Part shown: in pieces, positions 14,112 through 20,274 of the stretch | How the letters are laid out: each line of letters opens with the position of its first letter | How positions within the stretch are numbered: position 1 is the first letter of the stretch | IMG/VR virus record: IMGVR_UViG_2548877009_000004 | Reading direction: 5' to 3' (one strand) | Source of the DNA: a virus | Lineage: Duplodnaviria; Heunggongvirae; Uroviricota; Caudoviricetes | DNA: 20,274 nt | Translations under genes and position numbers: made by a program | Notes under the pieces: model-generated | The model's input: the letters and a program-made list of their open reading frames with translations, nothing else | Database searches by the model: none | What the model was told of the DNA's origin: nothing

Positions 14112-14419
14112 CTGCCCAGCGGTGGTTATCGGAGTTCGGGGGAGAAAGGGGGGAAAAGGCAAGATGGAAGCGAGAAAAACTCAGGTTGCCACCGATACCG
14201 GAACCAGAAATAGACCCGGTGCTTAAGGAGTTGTTGTACGCCTATTCGGTAATATCCCGTGCCCGACGTTATGCTGGAATGGCTGGGGTGCCTTTGCCTT
14301 TATCTCTGACAGAGATAAATGAATATTTAGCCACTCATCCGGTATTGATTGAGCGCGATGAATTTGAAGCAGTGATCTTTGCACTGGATGACCAGTATTT
14401 TCAGGAGCAGTGTGTGTAG
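14105..14419 (+). CDS. Tail assembly chaperone frameshift extension (lambda gpT analogue; expressed as a G-T fusion)
   Basis: The -1 frame relative to G is open from 14075 and ends at TAG 14417-14419. The track lists it only from TTG 14186 (77 aa); read from the slip site it adds about 104 aa to G. Confidence 0.65.
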   Translation, partial: AIAAQRWLSEFGGERGEKARWKREKLRLPPIPEPEIDPVLKELLYAYSVISRARRYAGMAGVPLPLSLTEINEYLATHPVLIERDEFEAVIFALDDQYFQEQCV

Positions 14420-14539
14420 TTGTTAATTACGTACACTCTGTTACAGAGATGTGATGGTGTCTTTAATTAAATCGATGATGCTCCTGGAGAAAAGCATTGC
14501 GTGGCCTCGTAATCGCTATATCTACTATTATGTCGCCTG

Positions 14540-14566
14540 AAACCCACTTCGCGGTGGGTTTTTTGT
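14540..14566 (+). terminator. Intrinsic terminator upstream of the tape measure gene
   Basis: aaacccac (14540-14547), ttcgcg loop, gtgggttt (14554-14561), then a T-run; AGGAG and ATG 14585 follow. Confidence 0.6.
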
Positions 14567-14584
14567 TGTCAGGAGTTTTAATAA

Positions 14585-17500
14585 ATGGCAGAGCAAACCT
14601 CGCGTCTCGCAATAATTATTGATAGCACTGGAGCGAAAAATAATGCTGACAATCTGACCTCCTCATTAGTCAAAATGACGCAGGCTGGGGAAACTGCTGC
14701 AAATAGCGCAGGGAAAGTGACTAAGGCAACAGAAGATGAGAAGAACGCGCTCGCAAAATTAAAAGCAGCTATTGATCCAGTTGGTGCCGCAATTGATACT
14801 GTCGGTCGACGCTATTCTGAATTAAAGAAATTTTTCGATAAAGGGCTTATTGATAAAGAAGAATATGAATTTCTTGTCCGTAAACTTAATGAAACCACAG
14901 AGGAATTGAGCGGGGTTGCGCAAGCGCAGAGAGAAGCCGAGAAGGCCGGAAAACTTGCTGCCGCCCAGCAGGAAGCGCAGGCTCAGGCCTTTCAAAGAAT
15001 GCTGGACAAGATCGACCCTCTGGCTGCGGCGCTAAGAAATCTTGAACAACAGCATGATGAACTTAATGCTGCGTTTGCATCCGGGAAAATAAATGGTTCT
15101 CAGTTTGAGAATTATAGCCGAAAAATACAGGAAACACGGCGAGAGCTTACCGGAGAGGCTCAGGCAGAGCGAGAAGCAGCAAAAGCGCATGATGAACAGG
15201 TTGTTGCTTTGCAACGTCTGATTGCTCAACTTGATCCTGTCGGAACTGCTTTTAATCGTCTGGTAGAACAACAGAAACAGCTCAATGAAGCAAAAGCTAA
15301 GGGGATGCTTTCTCCTGAAATGTATGAGGAGCTTTCTGGAAAACTTCGTGCTATGCGGAGTGAGCTTGAGGTTACTCAATCACAATTAAGCAAAACCGGA
15401 ATGTCGGCAAAACAAACGGCTTTTGCTATGCGCATGTTGCCTGCACAAATGACGGATATTGTTGTTGGGTTGTCCACTGGTCAGTCGCCATTTATGGTGT
15501 TAATGCAGCAGGGCGGCCAGCTAAAAGATATGTTCGGTGGGATTGGCCCGGCGATCAAAGGTGTAGGTTCTTATGTGCTGGGATTAATTAATCCTTTTAC
15601 CCTGGCCGCAGCAGCCGTTGGGGTCTTAGGACTGGCTTACTATAAAGGCTCTCAGGAGCAGGACGAATTTAATAAATCTCTTATTCTTACCGGAAATCAG
15701 TTGGGGACAACCAGCGGGCAATTGGGCGATATAGCTCAACGTGCCGGGAATGCGGCTGATTCGACAACTGGTGCTGCGGCGGCAGTATTAAATCAGCTTG
15801 TGCGTTCGGGAAAGGTAGCGAGCAGTTCGCTGGAGCAAGTGACGACAGCGATAGTAAAAACGAGCGAAGTAACAGGAATATCAACCGAACAACTGGTTAA
15901 TGACTTCAATGAAATTGCAAAGGATCCTGTCAGTGCCATATCAAAACTTAATGATCAGTACCATTTTCTGACACTTGCGACTTATAACCAGATTAAGGCG
16001 CTACAGGATGAAGGGAACCAGCAGGAGGCCGCCCGCATTGCGACAGAAGAATACTCATCCTCAATGATCCAGCGCACCAACCAGATTAAAGAAAATCTTG
16101 GTTATCTTGAGACTGCATGGAAAGCTGTCGCAGACTCCGCAAAATGGGCATGGGATTCCATGCTGGATATTGGCCGTGAGGCCTCCCTTGATCAAAAAAT
16201 CTCAGATGTTCTCCGTCAAATTGATGAAATAGAAAAAAATACCCGACCCGGAGTTTTCGGGTTAGGTGGCATTGGAGATGGCGGAGCTCAAAATAAAAGG
16301 CTGGCACGATTAAAGCAGCAATTGGGCGTACTTCAAGCAGAAAAAATTGCTCAGGACGTACTAAATTCATCAATAAACGATTACAACAAGCGACAACAGG
16401 AAGGAATTGAACTCAGACAGAGAGCAGATGCCTTTTCAAAACAATATCAGACCCGGGAGCAGCAGAGAGCTAGTGAACTTGCAAAACTGGAAAAGCTAAA
16501 GAATCAGTATTCAAAGGAAGAATATAATAATCTTATCGCTCAAATAAATGAGCGTTATAAAGATCCAAAGCAACCAAAGGCGAAAGGTTATTCTGATGAT
16601 GCAGCCCAACGAATGATTGATCATCTGAATCAACAGAATGCGTTACTAAGTTCACAAGCTGAGTTGACCGTTAAATTAAGTTCCTCTGAACAGGAACTGG
16701 TTAAGTGGCGTCAGCGGATTGCCGACCTAGAGTCACGACCATCATCGAAATTAACCCAGGATCAGAAATCGCTTCTCTTACACCGGGAAGAAATAACCGC
16801 GTTGATGGAGAAAAATGTTGCGATTGAAAAGAATAACAGGCTAATCAAGGAATCCGCCGAAATAACAGCATGGCGTGATTCATTGCAGGCTTCGATTGAT
16901 AATCGTCAGCAGGGGTATGATATTCAGATTGCTGGTTATGGGGTTGGCGATAAAAATCAGCAACGCCAGCAGGAATTACTGCGGATTGAACATGGATATA
17001 ACAATCAGCGTCTGCAACTTGAACGTGACTATGCAGATAAATCCCGTGGAATGTCAGATCATGTTTTTCAAGAGAAAATGCAGGCTCTGAATGATGCTCT
17101 GGAACGGGAAAAAGAAATTGTCAGACAGAAAAACGAGCAACTCGATATTCAGGCAGGAGACTGGGTTAGTGGTGCCTCCCAGGGATTCAATAACTGGCTG
17201 GATGACACTAAGGATATCAGTGAGCAGATAAAATCAACCACGACTCAGATGTTTGATGGGATGACCGATGCGCTGGGTGATTTTGTCACGACAGGCAAGG
17301 CAAATTTTCGTTCTTTCGCTACTTCCGTGATTTCGGATCTTAGTCGAATGGCATTAAAGGCTTCAATTACTGGGATTTTCGACAGCATTAGTAACAGTTC
17401 TTCTGGGGGGATTTTAGGAACTATCGGGAGTGCTATTAGTAAATTTATTCCGAATGCAAAGGGCGGTGTTTATGAGTCTCCGTCATTGAGCACGTATTCG

Positions 17501-17818
17501 AACGGTATTTATGATTCCCCGCAATTTTTTGCTTTTGCAAAAGGGGCTGGTGTTTTTGGTGAGGCTGGACCGGAAGCCATTATGCCATTAACACGAACTT
17601 CCGATGGTTCTCTTGGTGTCAGAGCTATTAATAGTAAAAGTGGTAATGGAGGCGGAGATATTACCTATGCCCCTGTATACCAAATCACTATTCAAAATGA
17701 CGGCCAGAATGGAGAGATTGGCCCTCAGGCAATAAAAGCACTTATGGGGATGGTTGATCAGCGGGTGCAGGGCAATCTGTTAAATATGCGACGTGATGGG
17801 GGAATATTAAGTGGCTAA
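14585..17818 (+). CDS. Tail tape measure protein
   Basis: 1077 aa, long helical Gln/Ala/Glu-rich sequence. Three N-terminal tandem repeats. A hydrophobic, Gly-rich central segment ([36 protein letters not shown]). Located between GT and M. Confidence 0.9.
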
Positions 17819-18149
17819 TACGGAAGAATTTCACTGGTTACCAGAGGATGGAATGAAAACAGAAAATAAACCATCGATAAAAACTGTAAGATTTGGCGAT
17901 GGTTATGAGCAACGAAGTCCAAATGGACTTAATCATTCTCTGCGCGTTTTCACCTGTGATTTCAAAGTTGAGGCGAATGAACGTGATTCATTTGAAAAAT
18001 TTTTAGCCCGGCATGAAGGCTATAAATCTTTTTTTTGGCGCCCGCCGGGTATTAACAGAAAAATCAGAGTGGTGTGTCGAACGTGGTCAGCGACAGAACA
18101 TATCACCTATACCGATTTTTCGTGTCAGTTTGACGAAGTGGTGATCTGA
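17811..18149 (+). CDS. M: Minor tail protein M
   Basis: Contains [16 protein letters not shown] (lambda M has VRFGDGYSQRAPAGLN) and ends ...FDEVVI (lambda ...FEQVVN). GTG start overlaps the tape measure stop; ATG 17853 is an alternative start. Confidence 0.8.
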
Positions 18150-18847
18150 TGCAGGACATACAACAGGAAACGCTGAATGAATGCATTCGTGCGGAGCAGT
18201 CGGCCAGCGTGGTGCTCTGGGAAATCGACCTGACCGAGGTAGGCGGGGATCGCTACTTTTTCTGTAATGAGCAGAACGAAAAAGGTGAGTCTGTCACCTG
18301 GCAGAGTCGGCAGTATCAGGCCTATCCCATTCAGGGGAGTGGATTTGAGATGAACGGCAAGGGCAGTGCTGCCCGTCCGACACTGACGGTCTCTAACCTG
18401 CACGGCATGATCACCGGGATGGCGGAAGATCTGCAGAGTCTGGTCGGCGGAACGGTGGTCCGGCGTAAGGTTTACGCCCGTTTTCTGGATGCGGTGAACT
18501 TCGTCAACGGAAACAGTGACGCCGATCCGGAGCAGGAGGTGATCAGCCGCTGGCGCATCGAGCAGTGCAGCGAACTGAGCGCGGTGAGTGCCTCTTTTGT
18601 ACTGTCCACGCCGACGGAAACGGATGGCGCTGTTTTTCCGGGACGTATCATGCTGGCCAACACCTGCACCTGGACCTATCGCGGTGACGAGTGCGGTTAT
18701 AGCGGTCCGGCGGTCGCGGATGAATATGACCAGCCGACGTCCGATATCACGAAGGATAAATGCAGCAAATGCCTGAGCGGCTGTAAGTTCCGCAATAATG
18801 TCGGCAACTTTGGCGGCTTCCTTTCCATTAACAAACTTTCGCAGTAA
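18149..18847 (+). CDS. L: Minor tail protein L
   Basis: 232 aa, [33 protein letters not shown]...FGGFLSINKLSQ; nearly identical to lambda gpL as I recall it. Start overlaps the M stop (ATGA). Confidence 0.95.
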   Translation: MQDIQQETLNECIRAEQSASVVLWEIDLTEVGGDRYFFCNEQNEKGESVTWQSRQYQAYPIQGSGFEMNGKGSAARPTLTVSNLHGMITGMAEDLQSLVGGTVVRRKVYARFLDAVNFVNGNSDADPEQEVISRWRIEQCSELSAVSASFVLSTPTETDGAVFPGRIMLANTCTWTYRGDECGYSGPAVADEYDQPTSDITKDKCSKCLSGCKFRNNVGNFGGFLSINKLSQ

Positions 18848-18852
18848 ATCCC

Positions 18853-19182
18853 ATGACAGAGACAGAATCAGCGATTCTGGCGCACGCCCGGCGATGTGCG
18901 CCAGCGGAGTCGTGCGGCTTCGTGGTGAGAACACCGGAGGGGGAAAGATATTTTCCCTGCGTGAATATCTCTGGTGAGCCGGAGGCGTATTTCCGGATGT
19001 CGCCGGAGGACTGGCTGAGTGCAGAAATGCAGGGAGAGATTGTGGCGCTGGTCCACAGCCACCCCGGTGGTCTGCCCTGGCTGAGTGAGGCCGACCGGCG
19101 GCTGCAGGTGCAGAGTGATTTGCCGTGGTGGCTGGTCTGCCGGGGGGCGATTCATAAGCGGAGTCGTGCGGCTTCGTGGTAA
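18853..19182 (+). CDS. K: Tail tip assembly protein K, 5' fragment (gene disrupted by internal 254-bp tandem duplication)
   Basis: MTETESAILAHARRCAPAESCGFVV...HSHPGGLPWLSEAD matches the lambda K N-terminus with its JAMM/MPN motif. The frame is lost at the duplication junction and terminates at TAA 19180-19182. Confidence 0.8.
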   Translation: MTETESAILAHARRCAPAESCGFVVRTPEGERYFPCVNISGEPEAYFRMSPEDWLSAEMQGEIVALVHSHPGGLPWLSEADRRLQVQSDLPWWLVCRGAIHKRSRAASW

Positions 19183-19412
19183 GCACGCCGGAGGGGGAAA
19201 GATATTTCCCCTGCGTGAATATCTCCGGTGAGCCGGAGGCGTATTTCCGTATGTCGCCGGAAGACTGGCTGCAGGCAGAAATGCAGGGTGAGATTGTGGC
19301 GCTGGTCCACAGCCACCCCGGTGGTCTGCCCTGGCTGAGTGAGGCCGACCGGCGGCTGCAGGTGCAGAGTGATTTGCCGTGGTGGCTGGTCTGCCGGGGG
19401 ACGATTTATAAG
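18905..19412. repeat. Direct tandem duplication, 2 x 254 bp, inside gene K
   Basis: Copy 1 is about 18905-19158 and copy 2 about 19159-19412. They align base for base without indels and differ at about 12 positions (~95% identity). 254 is not a multiple of 3. Confidence 0.85.
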
Positions 19413-19850
19413 TTCCGCTGTGTGCCGCATCTCACCGGGCGGCGCTTTGAGCACGGTGTGACGGACTGTTACACACTGTTCCGGGATGCTTATCATCTGG
19501 CGGGGATTGAGATGCCGGACTTTCATCGTGAGGATGACTGGTGGCGTAACGGCCAGAATCTCTATCTGGATAATCTGGAGGCGACGGGGCTGTATCAGGT
19601 GCCGTTGTCAGCGGCACAGCCGGGCGATGTGCTGCTGTGCTGTTTTGGTTCATCGGTGCCGAATCATGCCGCCATTTACTGTGGCGACGGCGAGCTGCTG
19701 CACCATATTCCTGAACAACTGAGCAAACGAGAGAGGTACACCGACAAATGGCAGCGACGCACACACTCCCTCTGGCGTCACCGGGCATGGCGCGCATCTG
19801 CCTTTACGGGGATTTACAACGATTTGGTCGCCGCATCGACCTTCGTGTGA
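19176..19850 (+). CDS. K: Tail tip assembly protein K, 3' fragment (second JAMM motif copy plus NlpC/P60-like domain)
   Basis: From GTG 19176 the K frame is restored inside copy 2: VSTPEGERYFPC...HSHPGG...CYTLFRDAYH...NHAAIYCGDGELLHH...AASTFV, matching lambda K through to its native stop. Confidence 0.8.
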   Translation: MVSTPEGERYFPCVNISGEPEAYFRMSPEDWLQAEMQGEIVALVHSHPGGLPWLSEADRRLQVQSDLPWWLVCRGTIYKFRCVPHLTGRRFEHGVTDCYTLFRDAYHLAGIEMPDFHREDDWWRNGQNLYLDNLEATGLYQVPLSAAQPGDVLLCCFGSSVPNHAAIYCGDGELLHHIPEQLSKRERYTDKWQRRTHSLWRHRAWRASAFTGIYNDLVAASTFV

Positions 19851-20274
19851 AAACGGGGGCTGAAGCCATCCGGGCACTGGCCACACAGCTCCCGGCGTTT
19901 CGTCAGAAACTGAGCGACGGCTGGTATCAGGTACGGATTGCCGGGCGGGACGTCAGCACGTCCGGGTTAACGGCGCAGTTACATGAGACTCTGCCTGATG
20001 GCGCTGTGATTCATATTGTTCCCAGAGTCGCCGGGGCCAAGTCAGGTGGTGTATTCCAGATTGTCCTGGGAGCTGCCGCCATTGCCGGATCATTCTTTAC
20101 TGCCGGAGCCACCCTTGCAGCATGGGGGGCAGCCATTGGGGCCGGTGGTATGACCGGCATCCTGTTTTCTCTCGGTGCCAGTATGGTGCTCGGTGGTGTG
20201 GCGCAGATGCTGGCACCGAAAGCCAGAACTCCCCGTACACAGACAACGGATAACGGCAAACAGAACACCTATTT
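19748..20274 (+). CDS. I: Tail assembly protein I (3' end outside the window)
   Basis: ATG 19748 gives MAATHTLPLASPGMARICLYGDLQRFGRRIDLRVKTGAEAIRALATQLPAF..., matching lambda gpI. The start overlaps the 3' end of K as in lambda. The frame is open to the window end, so it is absent from the ORF track. Confidence 0.9.
   Translation, partial: MAATHTLPLASPGMARICLYGDLQRFGRRIDLRVKTGAEAIRALATQLPAFRQKLSDGWYQVRIAGRDVSTSGLTAQLHETLPDGAVIHIVPRVAGAKSGGVFQIVLGAAAIAGSFFTAGATLAAWGAAIGAGGMTGILFSLGASMVLGGVAQMLAPKARTPRTQTTDNGKQNTY

Follow-up and report, generated by a model that had tools for sequence, protein, structure and literature searches.

The closest described counterpart of the locus reported here is gpK (TAPK) of phage lambda, which combines a JAB peptidase domain (PF14464) with an NlpC/P60 peptidase domain (PF00877) and which RefSeq names 'C40 family peptidase'. 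Lambda needs K to assemble its tail, although the virion does not contain K (PMC12617516); the predicted substrate of K is the ubiquitin-like protein I (PMC1779556). The JAMM motif is defined as E...HxH(x7)Sx2D, with the Glu forming part of the catalytic motif (PMC300881). Degenerate or split forms of TAPK are known from prophages, either as NlpC/P60-only proteins or with the JAB domain fused to TAPI, and these variants represent established lineages (Iyer, Burroughs and Aravind 2006, PMC1779556).

We analyzed a window of 20,274 nt (IMG/VR record IMGVR_UViG_2548877009_000004) that has the M-L-K-I gene order and the two peptidase domains of lambda, with a nucleotide identity to lambda K of ~96-99%. 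The order is M (17811-18149), L (18149-18847), the K fragments, and I (from 19847), as in loci L001 and L002-L024 of our comparison set. Gene L (plus strand) encodes the 232-aa minor tail protein L; its counterparts in L001 and L002-L011 carry the annotation phage minor tail protein L / PF05100, and its stop codon lies 5 nt ahead of the K ATG. The 5' part of gene I (tail assembly protein I; 19847-20274, plus strand) begins at a GTG that overlaps the K stop and runs past the window end. Its counterpart in L001 (31593-32165) is annotated 'tail assembly protein'. The remaining structural module is colinear with that of intact relatives.

Natural K genes keep both domains fused in an uninterrupted 744-nt frame, as we observed in 103/103 K genes of our panel, and the JAMM residues, including E19, are invariant in 85 unique natural K haplotypes. 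In the window, the two domains do not share one ~247-codon frame; the frame is broken at a novel junction, leaving ORFs of 109 and 224 aa. The locus is a disrupted allele of K, not an intact member. Unlike lambda gpK, it carries a 254-nt internal tandem duplication that puts the two domains in separate ORFs, and its JAB segment occurs twice, the second copy having no catalytic Glu in any translatable frame. JAB and NlpC/P60 thereby lie on separate polypeptides, as in the variants of Iyer et al. (PMC1779556); whereas those are established lineages, the K described here is a unique allele in which the route of origin, a partial duplication with a frameshift, can still be seen.

A repeat search of the window returned a gap-free direct tandem repeat of 254 nt with 95% identity, with copy 1 at 18903-19156 (K offsets 50-303) and copy 2 at 19157-19410. 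Tandem Repeats Finder independently reported 18903-19412 (period 254, 2.0 copies, 0% indels, score 934). A 254-bp direct tandem duplication within K had been proposed in the first-pass annotation, and both repeat finders bear it out. The coordinates given there (18905-19158 and 19159-19412) denote the same repeat, the phase of which is ambiguous by the 1-2 nt common to the junction. The copies had been said to differ at about 12 positions; they are indeed diverged, and the exact count is 13 mismatches and zero indels. A match of 241/254 positions in perfect tandem register is far beyond chance. The copies stand head to tail without a spacer (the start-to-start spacing of 254 nt equals the unit length), and no direct repeat besides this pair was found by the repeat search within 18000-20274. 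An identity-block computation placed the longest identical block between the copies, of 111 nt, at 19036-19146 (partner 19290-19400). This block is internal to the unit (offsets 133-243) and lies away from the unit ends.

Since 254 cannot be divided by 3, the duplication breaks K into two ORFs, and the ORF list agrees with the earlier reading of 109 and 224 aa. ORF1 (K'; 18853-19182, plus strand) encodes native K residues 1-102, followed by seven frameshifted residues (RSRAASW) and a TAA stop. ORF2 ('K; 19176-19850, plus strand) encodes K residues 24-247 from a GTG start that overlaps the ORF1 stop in the sequence GTGGTAA, with a GGAG 12 nt upstream of the overlap. By Pfam, ORF1 has a complete Prok-JAB domain (PF14464 over residues 4-98, 54.5 bits), and it keeps all five motif residues (E19, H68, H70, S78, and D81); E19 aligns to the Glu of PNEACG in PDB 2KKS. 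The JAB domain of ORF2 is partial, covering PF14464 profile positions 38-103 only (26.5 bits) and having no E19. The sequence HSHPGGLPWLSEAD is present in both ORF1 and ORF2, and by translation the HxH(x7)Sx2D part of the JAMM motif lies at 19054-19095 (H68-D81 of ORF1) and again at 19308-19349 (ORF2), both on the plus strand. A complete metalloprotease motif in each ORF, as was first supposed, is nevertheless not what is encoded. Three-frame translation of 19131-19215 locates the second catalytic Glu codon at 19161-19163 (plus strand), between the in-frame stop TAA at 19155-19157 and the first start, GTG at 19176, so the motif of ORF2 lacks a translated Glu and is incomplete. The NlpC/P60 (C40 peptidase) domain is a single undisturbed copy at 19437-19778 (plus strand), which Pfam assigns to ORF2 (PF00877 at residues 88-201, full profile 1-105, 49.5 bits) and not to ORF1, in accord with the earlier description.

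The length of native K matters for reading these fragments. An intact K of ~199 aa had been assumed, but removal of either copy gives an open 247-aa K frame (744 nt). We traced the 199-aa figure to the lambda reference (J02459/NC_001416), in which one G is missing in K; this G is present in resequenced lambda and in all prophages. In the lambda annotation K runs from 14276 to 14875, and the imm21 record marks a ribosome-binding site at this 'classical' start. That start is intact inside ORF2, as an internal GGAGG (19235-19239) and ATG at 19251 (19235-19253, plus strand), and a copy of it also occurs at ATG 18997 in ORF1. If the 199-aa form were the true product, ORF2 would encode a fully wild-type K. 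We rejected this for these prophages because across the 85 haplotypes codons 1-48 contain no stops, vary with a third-position bias, and keep E19 invariant, and because resequenced lambda also carries the missing G. As a side observation, the missing base in the lambda reference hides the JAB domain of K, and recent reviews still quote a 199-aa gpK. This by-product is perhaps more broadly useful than the duplication.

We compared each copy with natural K alleles, a check that the first-pass annotation had named, and the result was positive. Copy 1 is 100% identical to one natural allele (e.g., O103:H2 12009 and strain D5; 218 records at >=99%), which we call A-type, and copy 2 is 100% identical to another (CFSAN064036 and TUM9868; 1683 records at >=99%), which we call B-type. 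Between copy 2 and L001, the closest Rac-like relative, there are 2 differences. All 13 of the 13 sites that differ between the copies are natural polymorphisms, nine of them synonymous. Since each copy matches a distinct natural allele and all 13 sites are natural, the copies derive from two alleles and did not diverge in place. The statement that this was no fresh slippage event stands, the copies being two unaltered natural alleles, and neither drift after slippage nor mutation in place since an old duplication fits the data.

Exact A-type identity extends over 18847-19157 (311 nt; A-type prophages L012/L013), and exact B-type identity over 19157-19666 (510 nt; L014, which is CFSAN064036). 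Gene I is likewise B-type, with 3-4 differences to L001/L014 versus >140 to A/C-type loci. Because A-type identity ends and B-type identity begins at 19157, the switch of allele coincides with the novel junction, which fits what would be expected if a single event joined two different molecules. The carriers of the A-type allele are lambda-like prophages whose tail-shaft module differs from that of the Rac-like window, indicating that the donor was a second element. Such elements are commonly at hand: the claim that hosts often hold several lambdoid prophages is upheld by the finding that an E. coli genome contains this region in 2 places at the median and in as many as 13.

The novel junction, CATA/AG/CGGA at 19153-19162, joins K offset 303-305 to offset 50. 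The junction-spanning sequence is CATAAGCGGAGTC, and the 21-mer GATTCATAAGCGGAGTCGTGC would mark reads that carry the duplication. Microhomology at the junction amounts to 1 nt (A) or 2 nt (AG), depending on the donor, and left and right extension tests indicated that the sequences beyond the joined points (K offsets 305 and 50) are unrelated past these 1-2 nt. Unequal recombination between two K alleles had been suggested at first. The two alleles stand, but homologous unequal crossing-over is ruled out, as the joined points had no pre-existing homology beyond 1-2 nt.

We lean, somewhat beyond an even chance, toward a private heteroallelic partial tandem duplication of K in a Rac-like lambdoid prophage of E. 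coli, produced by a single illegitimate event. We infer both the molecular mechanism and the physical presence of the junction in the source DNA from the assembled sequence. In such an event, synthesis or repair would have copied an A-type K, from another lambdoid prophage or an incoming phage, up to K offset ~305. A join or switch would then have followed to offset 50 in the B-type K already resident, the two points having only 1-2 nt of homology. Near the L/K boundary, on the left, ordinary homology would let the A-type tract pass into the resident sequence. In E. coli, template switching is documented to produce tandem duplications with microhomology junctions (PMC1428787). Illegitimate and template-switch duplications in this species (lac amplification, Slack et al. 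2006, PMC1428787; MMBIR model, PMC2621351) are likewise head to tail with a near-homology-free junction. Such events and the K duplication also share a foreign tract that is anchored by homology on one side and joined illegitimately on the other. They differ in scale and partners. The unit here is 254 nt, versus kilobases; the copies come from two alleles, so the switch would have been between different molecules or elements and not between sister strands; and the microhomology is 1-2 nt, versus 4-15 bp for lac amplicons (PMC1428787). Homology-facilitated illegitimate recombination, reportedly described by de Vries and Wackernagel, offers a further analogy.

A two-step origin, in which a B-type intramolecular duplication arose first, by slippage or sister-strand exchange, and one copy was then overwritten through gene conversion by an A-type K elsewhere in the genome, strikes us as very improbable. 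In its favor, gene conversion and mosaicism are rampant in L-K-I and tandem duplications arise readily in E. coli (PMC1428787). The A-type tract, however, reaches site 19153, with exact identity to 19157, and so stops no more than 0-4 nt from the junction. To resolve, a conversion tract requires homology past its end, whereas the donor diverges completely after the junction (TTCCGC versus CGGAGT), and two rare events would be needed where one suffices.

We searched for the duplication in several collections. Among 5,426 complete E. coli genomes there was none, and all best matches spanned 947 nt, i.e., 1201-254 nt. This screen relied on the span of a 1201-nt query, and that of the contig collections on exact pattern scans; BLAST of a 120-nt junction probe against E. 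coli genomes and phages was uninformative, as its two halves, 256 nt apart in single-copy genes, were joined as '100% covered'. The duplication was likewise absent from 110 fetched relatives and from 80 IMG/VR K loci, and 20 loci with the exact same tape-measure or gpL protein were all single-copy. An exact scan of three collections (genome, viral, and metagenome contigs) did not find the junction pattern, and exact protein look-up in a 153-billion-gene index found neither the ORF1 nor the ORF2 product on record.

Being a singleton in every collection searched, the duplication could be an assembly or library artefact, in which a gap-closer, a scaffolder, contig merging, or a chimeric library fragment joined the A- and B-type K of two lambdoid prophages in the source genome out of register. 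We regard this as possible, if on balance unlikely. It resembles contig-merging and gap-closing artefacts in lying in a multi-copy repeat, near an apparent contig end (within 1.4 kb of the window end), and in its unique occurrence. The first base of the window lies within 8 nt of where another deposited contig begins, and its last base within ~145 nt of where several 20.3-kb contigs covering this region stop, which suggests a short-read contig bounded by repeats. Abutting two contigs would also place the allele switch exactly at the junction, and microhomology of 1-2 nt is at chance level. On the other hand, a De Bruijn assembler can output the junction k-mers only if some reads carry them. 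A contig-end overlap predicts identical copies of shared k-mer or block length, whereas here 13 sites distinguish the copies, and the unit boundaries (K offsets 50 and 305) lie off the only long shared block. This simplest form of artefact, contig-overlap duplication, therefore does not fit, the copies being different and the 111-nt block internal. Base quality is otherwise high. The remainder of the window has no indels and 95 mismatches over 18.9 kb relative to the closest relative, which indicates a base-accurate assembly.

A chimeric consensus might also be expected to betray itself in the flanks, which are no more mosaic than natural haplotypes. In a copying-model tiling, the L-K-I region proved hyper-mosaic, with 93 unique haplotypes among 102 loci and a median of 9 exact-match segments; the window flanks need 10-11 segments versus this natural median. 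Flank mosaicism thus appears typical, with no sign of a chimeric consensus. No perfect extant haplotype was found for the whole left or right arms (best 99.4%, 99.5%, and 98.9%), a result that is not diagnostic because the region is hyper-mosaic. Against the single illegitimate event that we favor, the microhomology of 1-2 nt is no more than chance gives, and the duplication is a singleton located in a multi-copy repeat region, 0.4-1.4 kb short of the window end. Window ends that look like breaks between short-read contigs make artefacts more likely in such a place.

With K broken in this way, ORF1 is a stand-alone complete JAB/JAMM domain with a 7-residue junk tail, and ORF2 is a JAB domain minus the catalytic Glu together with NlpC/P60 left whole. 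Ribosomes could translate ORF2 after reinitiating at the GTGGTAA overlap, or by starting at the internal GGAGG-ATG. Judging from these predicted products, K function, and hence tail assembly, is most likely lost or strongly reduced. The earlier verdict that the prophage probably cannot make a functional tail tip is plausible in this light. It is overstated in two respects: ORF1 and ORF2 still encode one complete JAB and one complete NlpC/P60 domain between them, and an in-frame collapse is possible across the 111-nt block. Tandem repeats of ~100 bp delete often and independently of RecA (PMC8378479). Recombination between the copies, or replication slippage, would give back a chimeric K of 247 aa in frame, and collapse across the 111-nt block could thus potentially restore a 247-codon gene. 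Separately, we considered the 98.8%-identical record 'Salmonella phage SPF_0923' as evidence that this module makes virions and rejected it, since the record holds sitABCD, ompN, and other chromosomal genes.

Functional gene fission, with ORF1 acting as a free, active JAB peptidase, ORF2 supplying the NlpC/P60 activity, and tails still assembling, seems to us quite improbable. Several features speak in its favor: the whole JAB domain and its five motif residues are in ORF1, the whole NlpC/P60 domain is in ORF2, and the overlap with its GGAG, together with the strong internal GGAGG-ATG, offers routes to translation. Natural tail clusters with the two domains on separate polypeptides, or with an NlpC/P60-only TAPK, also exist (PMC1779556), but the NlpC/P60-only versions are viewed as probably degenerate prophage forms (Iyer et al. 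2006, PMC1779556). Selection for fission has left no sign, the duplication being a singleton of two unaltered natural alleles, and the 103/103 natural K genes with fused domains in a 247-codon frame and invariant E19 argue against it. The crippled JAB of ORF2, moreover, might misfold or interfere with ORF1. We give a similarly small chance to the idea that split K works as a translationally coupled pair (a free JAB plus NlpC/P60 with a dead JAB remnant) or that it is a reversible on/off lesion that collapses during induction.

Programmed ribosomal frameshifting could in principle fuse the ORFs into one protein with a duplicated JAB, as ORF2 reads in the -1 frame with respect to ORF1, the two reading frames overlapping at 19158-19182. 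A scan of 19140-19185 found no X XXY YYZ heptamer, however, and no homopolymer of >=4 in the overlap, and the junction is unique, so there is no conservation to suggest recoding. We rejected this explanation, which we hold to be barely conceivable, for want of a slippery site.

Most likely, then, the duplication is an ordinary private mutation that left a tidy footprint of recombination; in either case it changes nothing fundamental. Should it prove an artefact, it would usefully caution against taking multi-copy lambdoid tail genes at face value in draft assemblies. If real, it would be a clean record, made in nature, of illegitimate recombination between two lambdoid phages that were resident together or co-infecting. 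It would also illustrate clearly how a two-domain gene can be split by partial duplication, and it would predict a prophage that is tail-defective but revertible. The locus would lend itself, as it stands, to asking whether gpK can work with JAB and NlpC/P60 on separate polypeptides. Were split K, improbable as it is, to work or to be a reversible lesion, it would follow that K's two peptidase activities can operate in trans when the tail tip is assembled.

The window is drawn from a Rac-like lambdoid prophage and comprises its late region, with lysis-gene remnants, trkG, terminase, a portal-like DUF4055 gene and a P22-type capsid gene, followed by the tail tube, the tape measure, and finally M, L, K, and I of lambda type. 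The trkG gene (Trk potassium transporter, 330-1805) is cargo between the lysis and terminase genes, as in K-12 Rac; here it is joined to a complete-looking head and tail module, such as K-12 Rac has lost. Among complete E. coli genomes, the closest matches share 99.4% identity with the window. All of these matches span 20,020 nt, that is, 20,274 minus 254, and are therefore single-copy for a 254-nt segment of K that the window carries twice. With this duplication excluded, the window shows no indels against its closest relative, strain YZLc23-1, with mismatches at 95 sites across 18.9 kb and at 11 in the final 864 nt. The lesion in K is the sole structural lesion within the window. A case of more conventional K decay is GCA_045610265.1 (300-19111), a decaying Rac-like prophage in which IS1 insertions stand in place of the head genes and J is split into two ORFs; its K region has four gap openings relative to the window and is called only as a 156-aa NlpC/P60 product.

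Two independent repeat finders identified the duplication as a gap-free direct tandem repeat with 95% identity (copy 1, 18903-19156; copy 2, 19157-19410; TRF score 934). The first-pass annotation had described the same repeat, with coordinates shifted by the 2 nt of ambiguity at the junction, and about 12 differences between copies; base-by-base comparison gives an exact count of 13 mismatches and no indels. As that annotation also held, the ORF map divides K, on the plus strand, into a 109-aa ORF1 (18853-19182) and a 224-aa ORF2 (GTG 19176 to 19850). In silico removal of either copy yields a single open frame (744 nt; 247 aa) rather than the intact K of ~199 aa that had been expected. The K ATG (18845-18855) has no recognizable Shine-Dalgarno sequence and lies 5 nt past the L stop, which suggests that K is translationally coupled to L. 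On the minus strand, a 353-aa ORF (18125-19186) takes in L together with the first half of K, and the duplication lengthens it; openness is its sole support, and it most likely arises as a by-product of the opposite, G+C-rich coding strand.

Intact K contains two Pfam domains, Prok-JAB (PF14464, residues 3-104) and then NlpC/P60 (PF00877, residues 111-224), an order that agrees with the TAPK architecture of Iyer et al. 2006 (PMC1779556). ORF1 consists of native K residues 1-102 followed by RSRAASW and a stop. Its JAB domain is scored as complete (54.5 bits), and it holds the full set of the JAMM motif, EXnHxHX7SXXD (PMC300881): E19, H68, H70, S78, and D81. E19 pairs in alignment with the Glu of the PxExCG element in 2KKS, a solved Prok-JAB protein. 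ORF2 corresponds to K residues 24-247, with a full NlpC/P60 domain and a JAB match restricted to profile positions 38-103 (26.5 bits). Its frame opens only at 19158, after an in-frame TAA (19155-19157), and its first start codon is GTG 19176; hence, the second Glu codon (19161-19163) lies outside ORF2. The HSHPGG...SEAD segment is duplicated, as first noticed, but only ORF1 carries a complete catalytic motif. The stop of ORF1 overlaps the start of ORF2 in GTGGTAA, with GGAG 12 nt upstream; a stronger signal, GGAGG-N11-ATG, lies inside ORF2 (19235-19253). The overlap contains no slippery heptamer or homopolymer run, so programmed frameshifting joining the two ORFs has no sequence support and was rejected. 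The locus, a lambda-type K allele in disrupted form, retains the synteny and domains of the K family but not its single uninterrupted frame.

The lambda reference (J02459 / NC_001416) annotates K at 199 aa, starting at an internal Met. In alignment, this reference lacks one G (GGAGGC-TATTTCC, position ~14266; window equivalents 18987-18988 and 19241-19242) that is present in the independently sequenced Lambda_AGU (LC730321, 48,503 bp), in lambda imm21 (OM418625), and in all prophage K genes compared. Across 85 unique K haplotypes found in nature, codons 1-48 are free of stops, 15 of the 23 polymorphisms in these codons fall at third positions (a bias as in the remaining gene), and E19 is invariant. 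Because of these features, and because the resequenced lambdas have the G, the 247-codon frame is the real K gene; ORF2 has therefore lost a conserved part of K. The missing G breaks the 247-codon frame in the lambda reference, masks the JAB domain, and accounts for the 199-aa gpK, which is still quoted in reviews (e.g., PMC7291167). The 1982 lambda sequence probably contains an error or a strain variant here, and a strong GGAGG at internal Met49 probably helped entrench the shorter annotation.

Compared with K in the closest Rac-like relative, copy 2 has 2 differing sites and copy 1 has 11. We searched each copy separately against 5,426 complete E. coli genomes. Copy 1 perfectly matches K of, e.g., O103:H2 12009, ATCC 43886, and strain D5 (218 records at ≥99%), and copy 2 that of CFSAN064036 and TUM9868 (1683 records at ≥99%). 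We call these two natural alleles A-type and B-type. Copy 1 is A-type at 13/13 discriminating sites, and the B-type state is found in copy 2 and ~237 nt beyond. Nine of the 13 differences between copies are synonymous, and the remainder are the natural variants R26S, S56Q, A99T, and H101Y. Since each copy has its own perfect matches and all differences are natural variants, the allele comparison suggested at first pass comes out positive: the copies derive from two alleles. This bears out the earlier view that the repeat is not a fresh slippage event, and slippage with subsequent divergence in place is likewise ruled out. In the fetched A-type carriers, which are lambda-like prophages, the tail-shaft module is of another kind (U, V, G, T, and a shorter tape measure); hence, the donor and the resident Rac-like prophage are different elements. 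The L-K-I region (18149-20274, loci L001-L111 of relatives) is extremely mosaic, with 93 unique haplotypes among 102 loci; rebuilding a typical haplotype takes ~9 exact-match segments of the others, and I alleles divide into two or more deeply divergent classes (>140 differences within 356 nt).

The window is identical to A-type loci (L012/L013) from 18847 to 19157 (311 nt) and to the B-type locus of CFSAN064036 from 19157 to 19666 (510 nt), and the allele switch coincides with the novel junction. Here, K offset 303-305 (position within the gene) is joined to offset 50. The joined points share A only, or AG if the donor had AAG, as do 15/20 similar haplotypes, and the join is therefore illegitimate. 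The initial proposal of unequal recombination between two diverged K alleles was right about the alleles, but a homologous unequal crossover is excluded by the lack of misaligned homology at the joined points. A duplication followed by gene conversion of one copy is unlikely, because the A-type tract ends within 0-4 nt of the junction, past which donor and recipient are unrelated and offer no homology to resolve a conversion tract. We propose that one event joined an A-type molecule (left) to a B-type molecule (right) out of register, and that the left end of the A-type tract would blend in by ordinary homology near the L/K boundary. This single join would explain all observations. Homology-facilitated illegitimate recombination offers an analogy. 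The proposed join also resembles the template switching, or duplication formation mediated by microhomology, that has been documented in E. coli (PMC1428787; PMC2621351). Short tandem duplication by illegitimate joining is a well-known kind of event; the unusual detail is that both copies are still pristine versions of two different alleles, so that the event can be dated as recent and recognized as one between two elements.

The duplicated arrangement is a singleton in the collections searched. With a 1201-nt query, every top match in complete E. coli genomes spans 947 nt in two pieces. The exact junction pattern is absent from species-representative genomes, IMG/VR, and metagenome contigs, and exact protein look-ups found no record of the ORF1 and ORF2 products. 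All 20 loci whose tape-measure or gpL protein is exactly that of the window, and all 80 IMG/VR K loci, are single-copy. This singleton status would fit an artifact from a gap-closer, contig merger, or library chimera, a serious rival that we nonetheless regard as less likely. It is serious because E. coli genomes hold the region in multiple copies (a median of 2 and as many as 13 places in a genome, in keeping with the first-pass remark that hosts often carry several lambdoid prophages), and because the feature lies near a window end and the window ends match those of other deposited contigs of the region. However, De Bruijn assemblers require reads containing the junction. In addition, the usual contig-overlap artifact leaves copies that are identical and delimited by shared sequence, but the present copies show 13 differences and end off their sole long shared block (111 nt, offsets 133-243 of the repeat unit). 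The window is also indel-free against its closest relative, and its L-K-I flanks comprise 10-11 exact segments, no more mosaic than natural haplotypes (median 9, mean 11). On balance, we think it probable that the duplication is a real event.

The window starts inside a lysis (Rz-like) gene and ends inside gene I, 8-270 nt from the ends of several separately deposited ~20.3-kb contigs of the region (ON470585, ON470587, and others), which suggests that it is a whole short-read contig bounded by repeats common to lambdoid prophages. ON032529.1 ("Salmonella phage SPF_0923", 28143-35262) starts 8 nt from the window start. It was deposited as a complete phage genome; the presence of sitABCD, uspF, ompN, and a gene for pyruvate-flavodoxin oxidoreductase shows it to be a chromosomal contig that carries a prophage rather than the genome of a virion.

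Lambda tail assembly needs gpK, which is not found in virions and whose location is unknown (PMC12617516; PMC10721106); gpK is predicted to process the ubiquitin-like protein I (PMC1779556). Judging from the sequence, the split most likely abolishes or lowers K function, which would make the prophage tail-defective. The first-pass conclusion that a functional tail tip probably cannot be made is thus plausible, but is softened by two considerations: (i) the copies have an identical block of 111 nt in common, any in-register exchange or slippage between them gives a 247-aa chimeric K, and since ~100-bp tandem repeats in E. coli delete at high frequency independently of RecA (PMC8378479), K+ revertants should arise; and (ii) ORF1 and ORF2 jointly still supply a complete JAB domain and a complete NlpC/P60 domain, and tail clusters are known in nature that place these domains on separate proteins (PMC1779556), so residual K function in trans is conceivable, if quite improbable. 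Should the split K prove functional, the finding would gain modest added significance.
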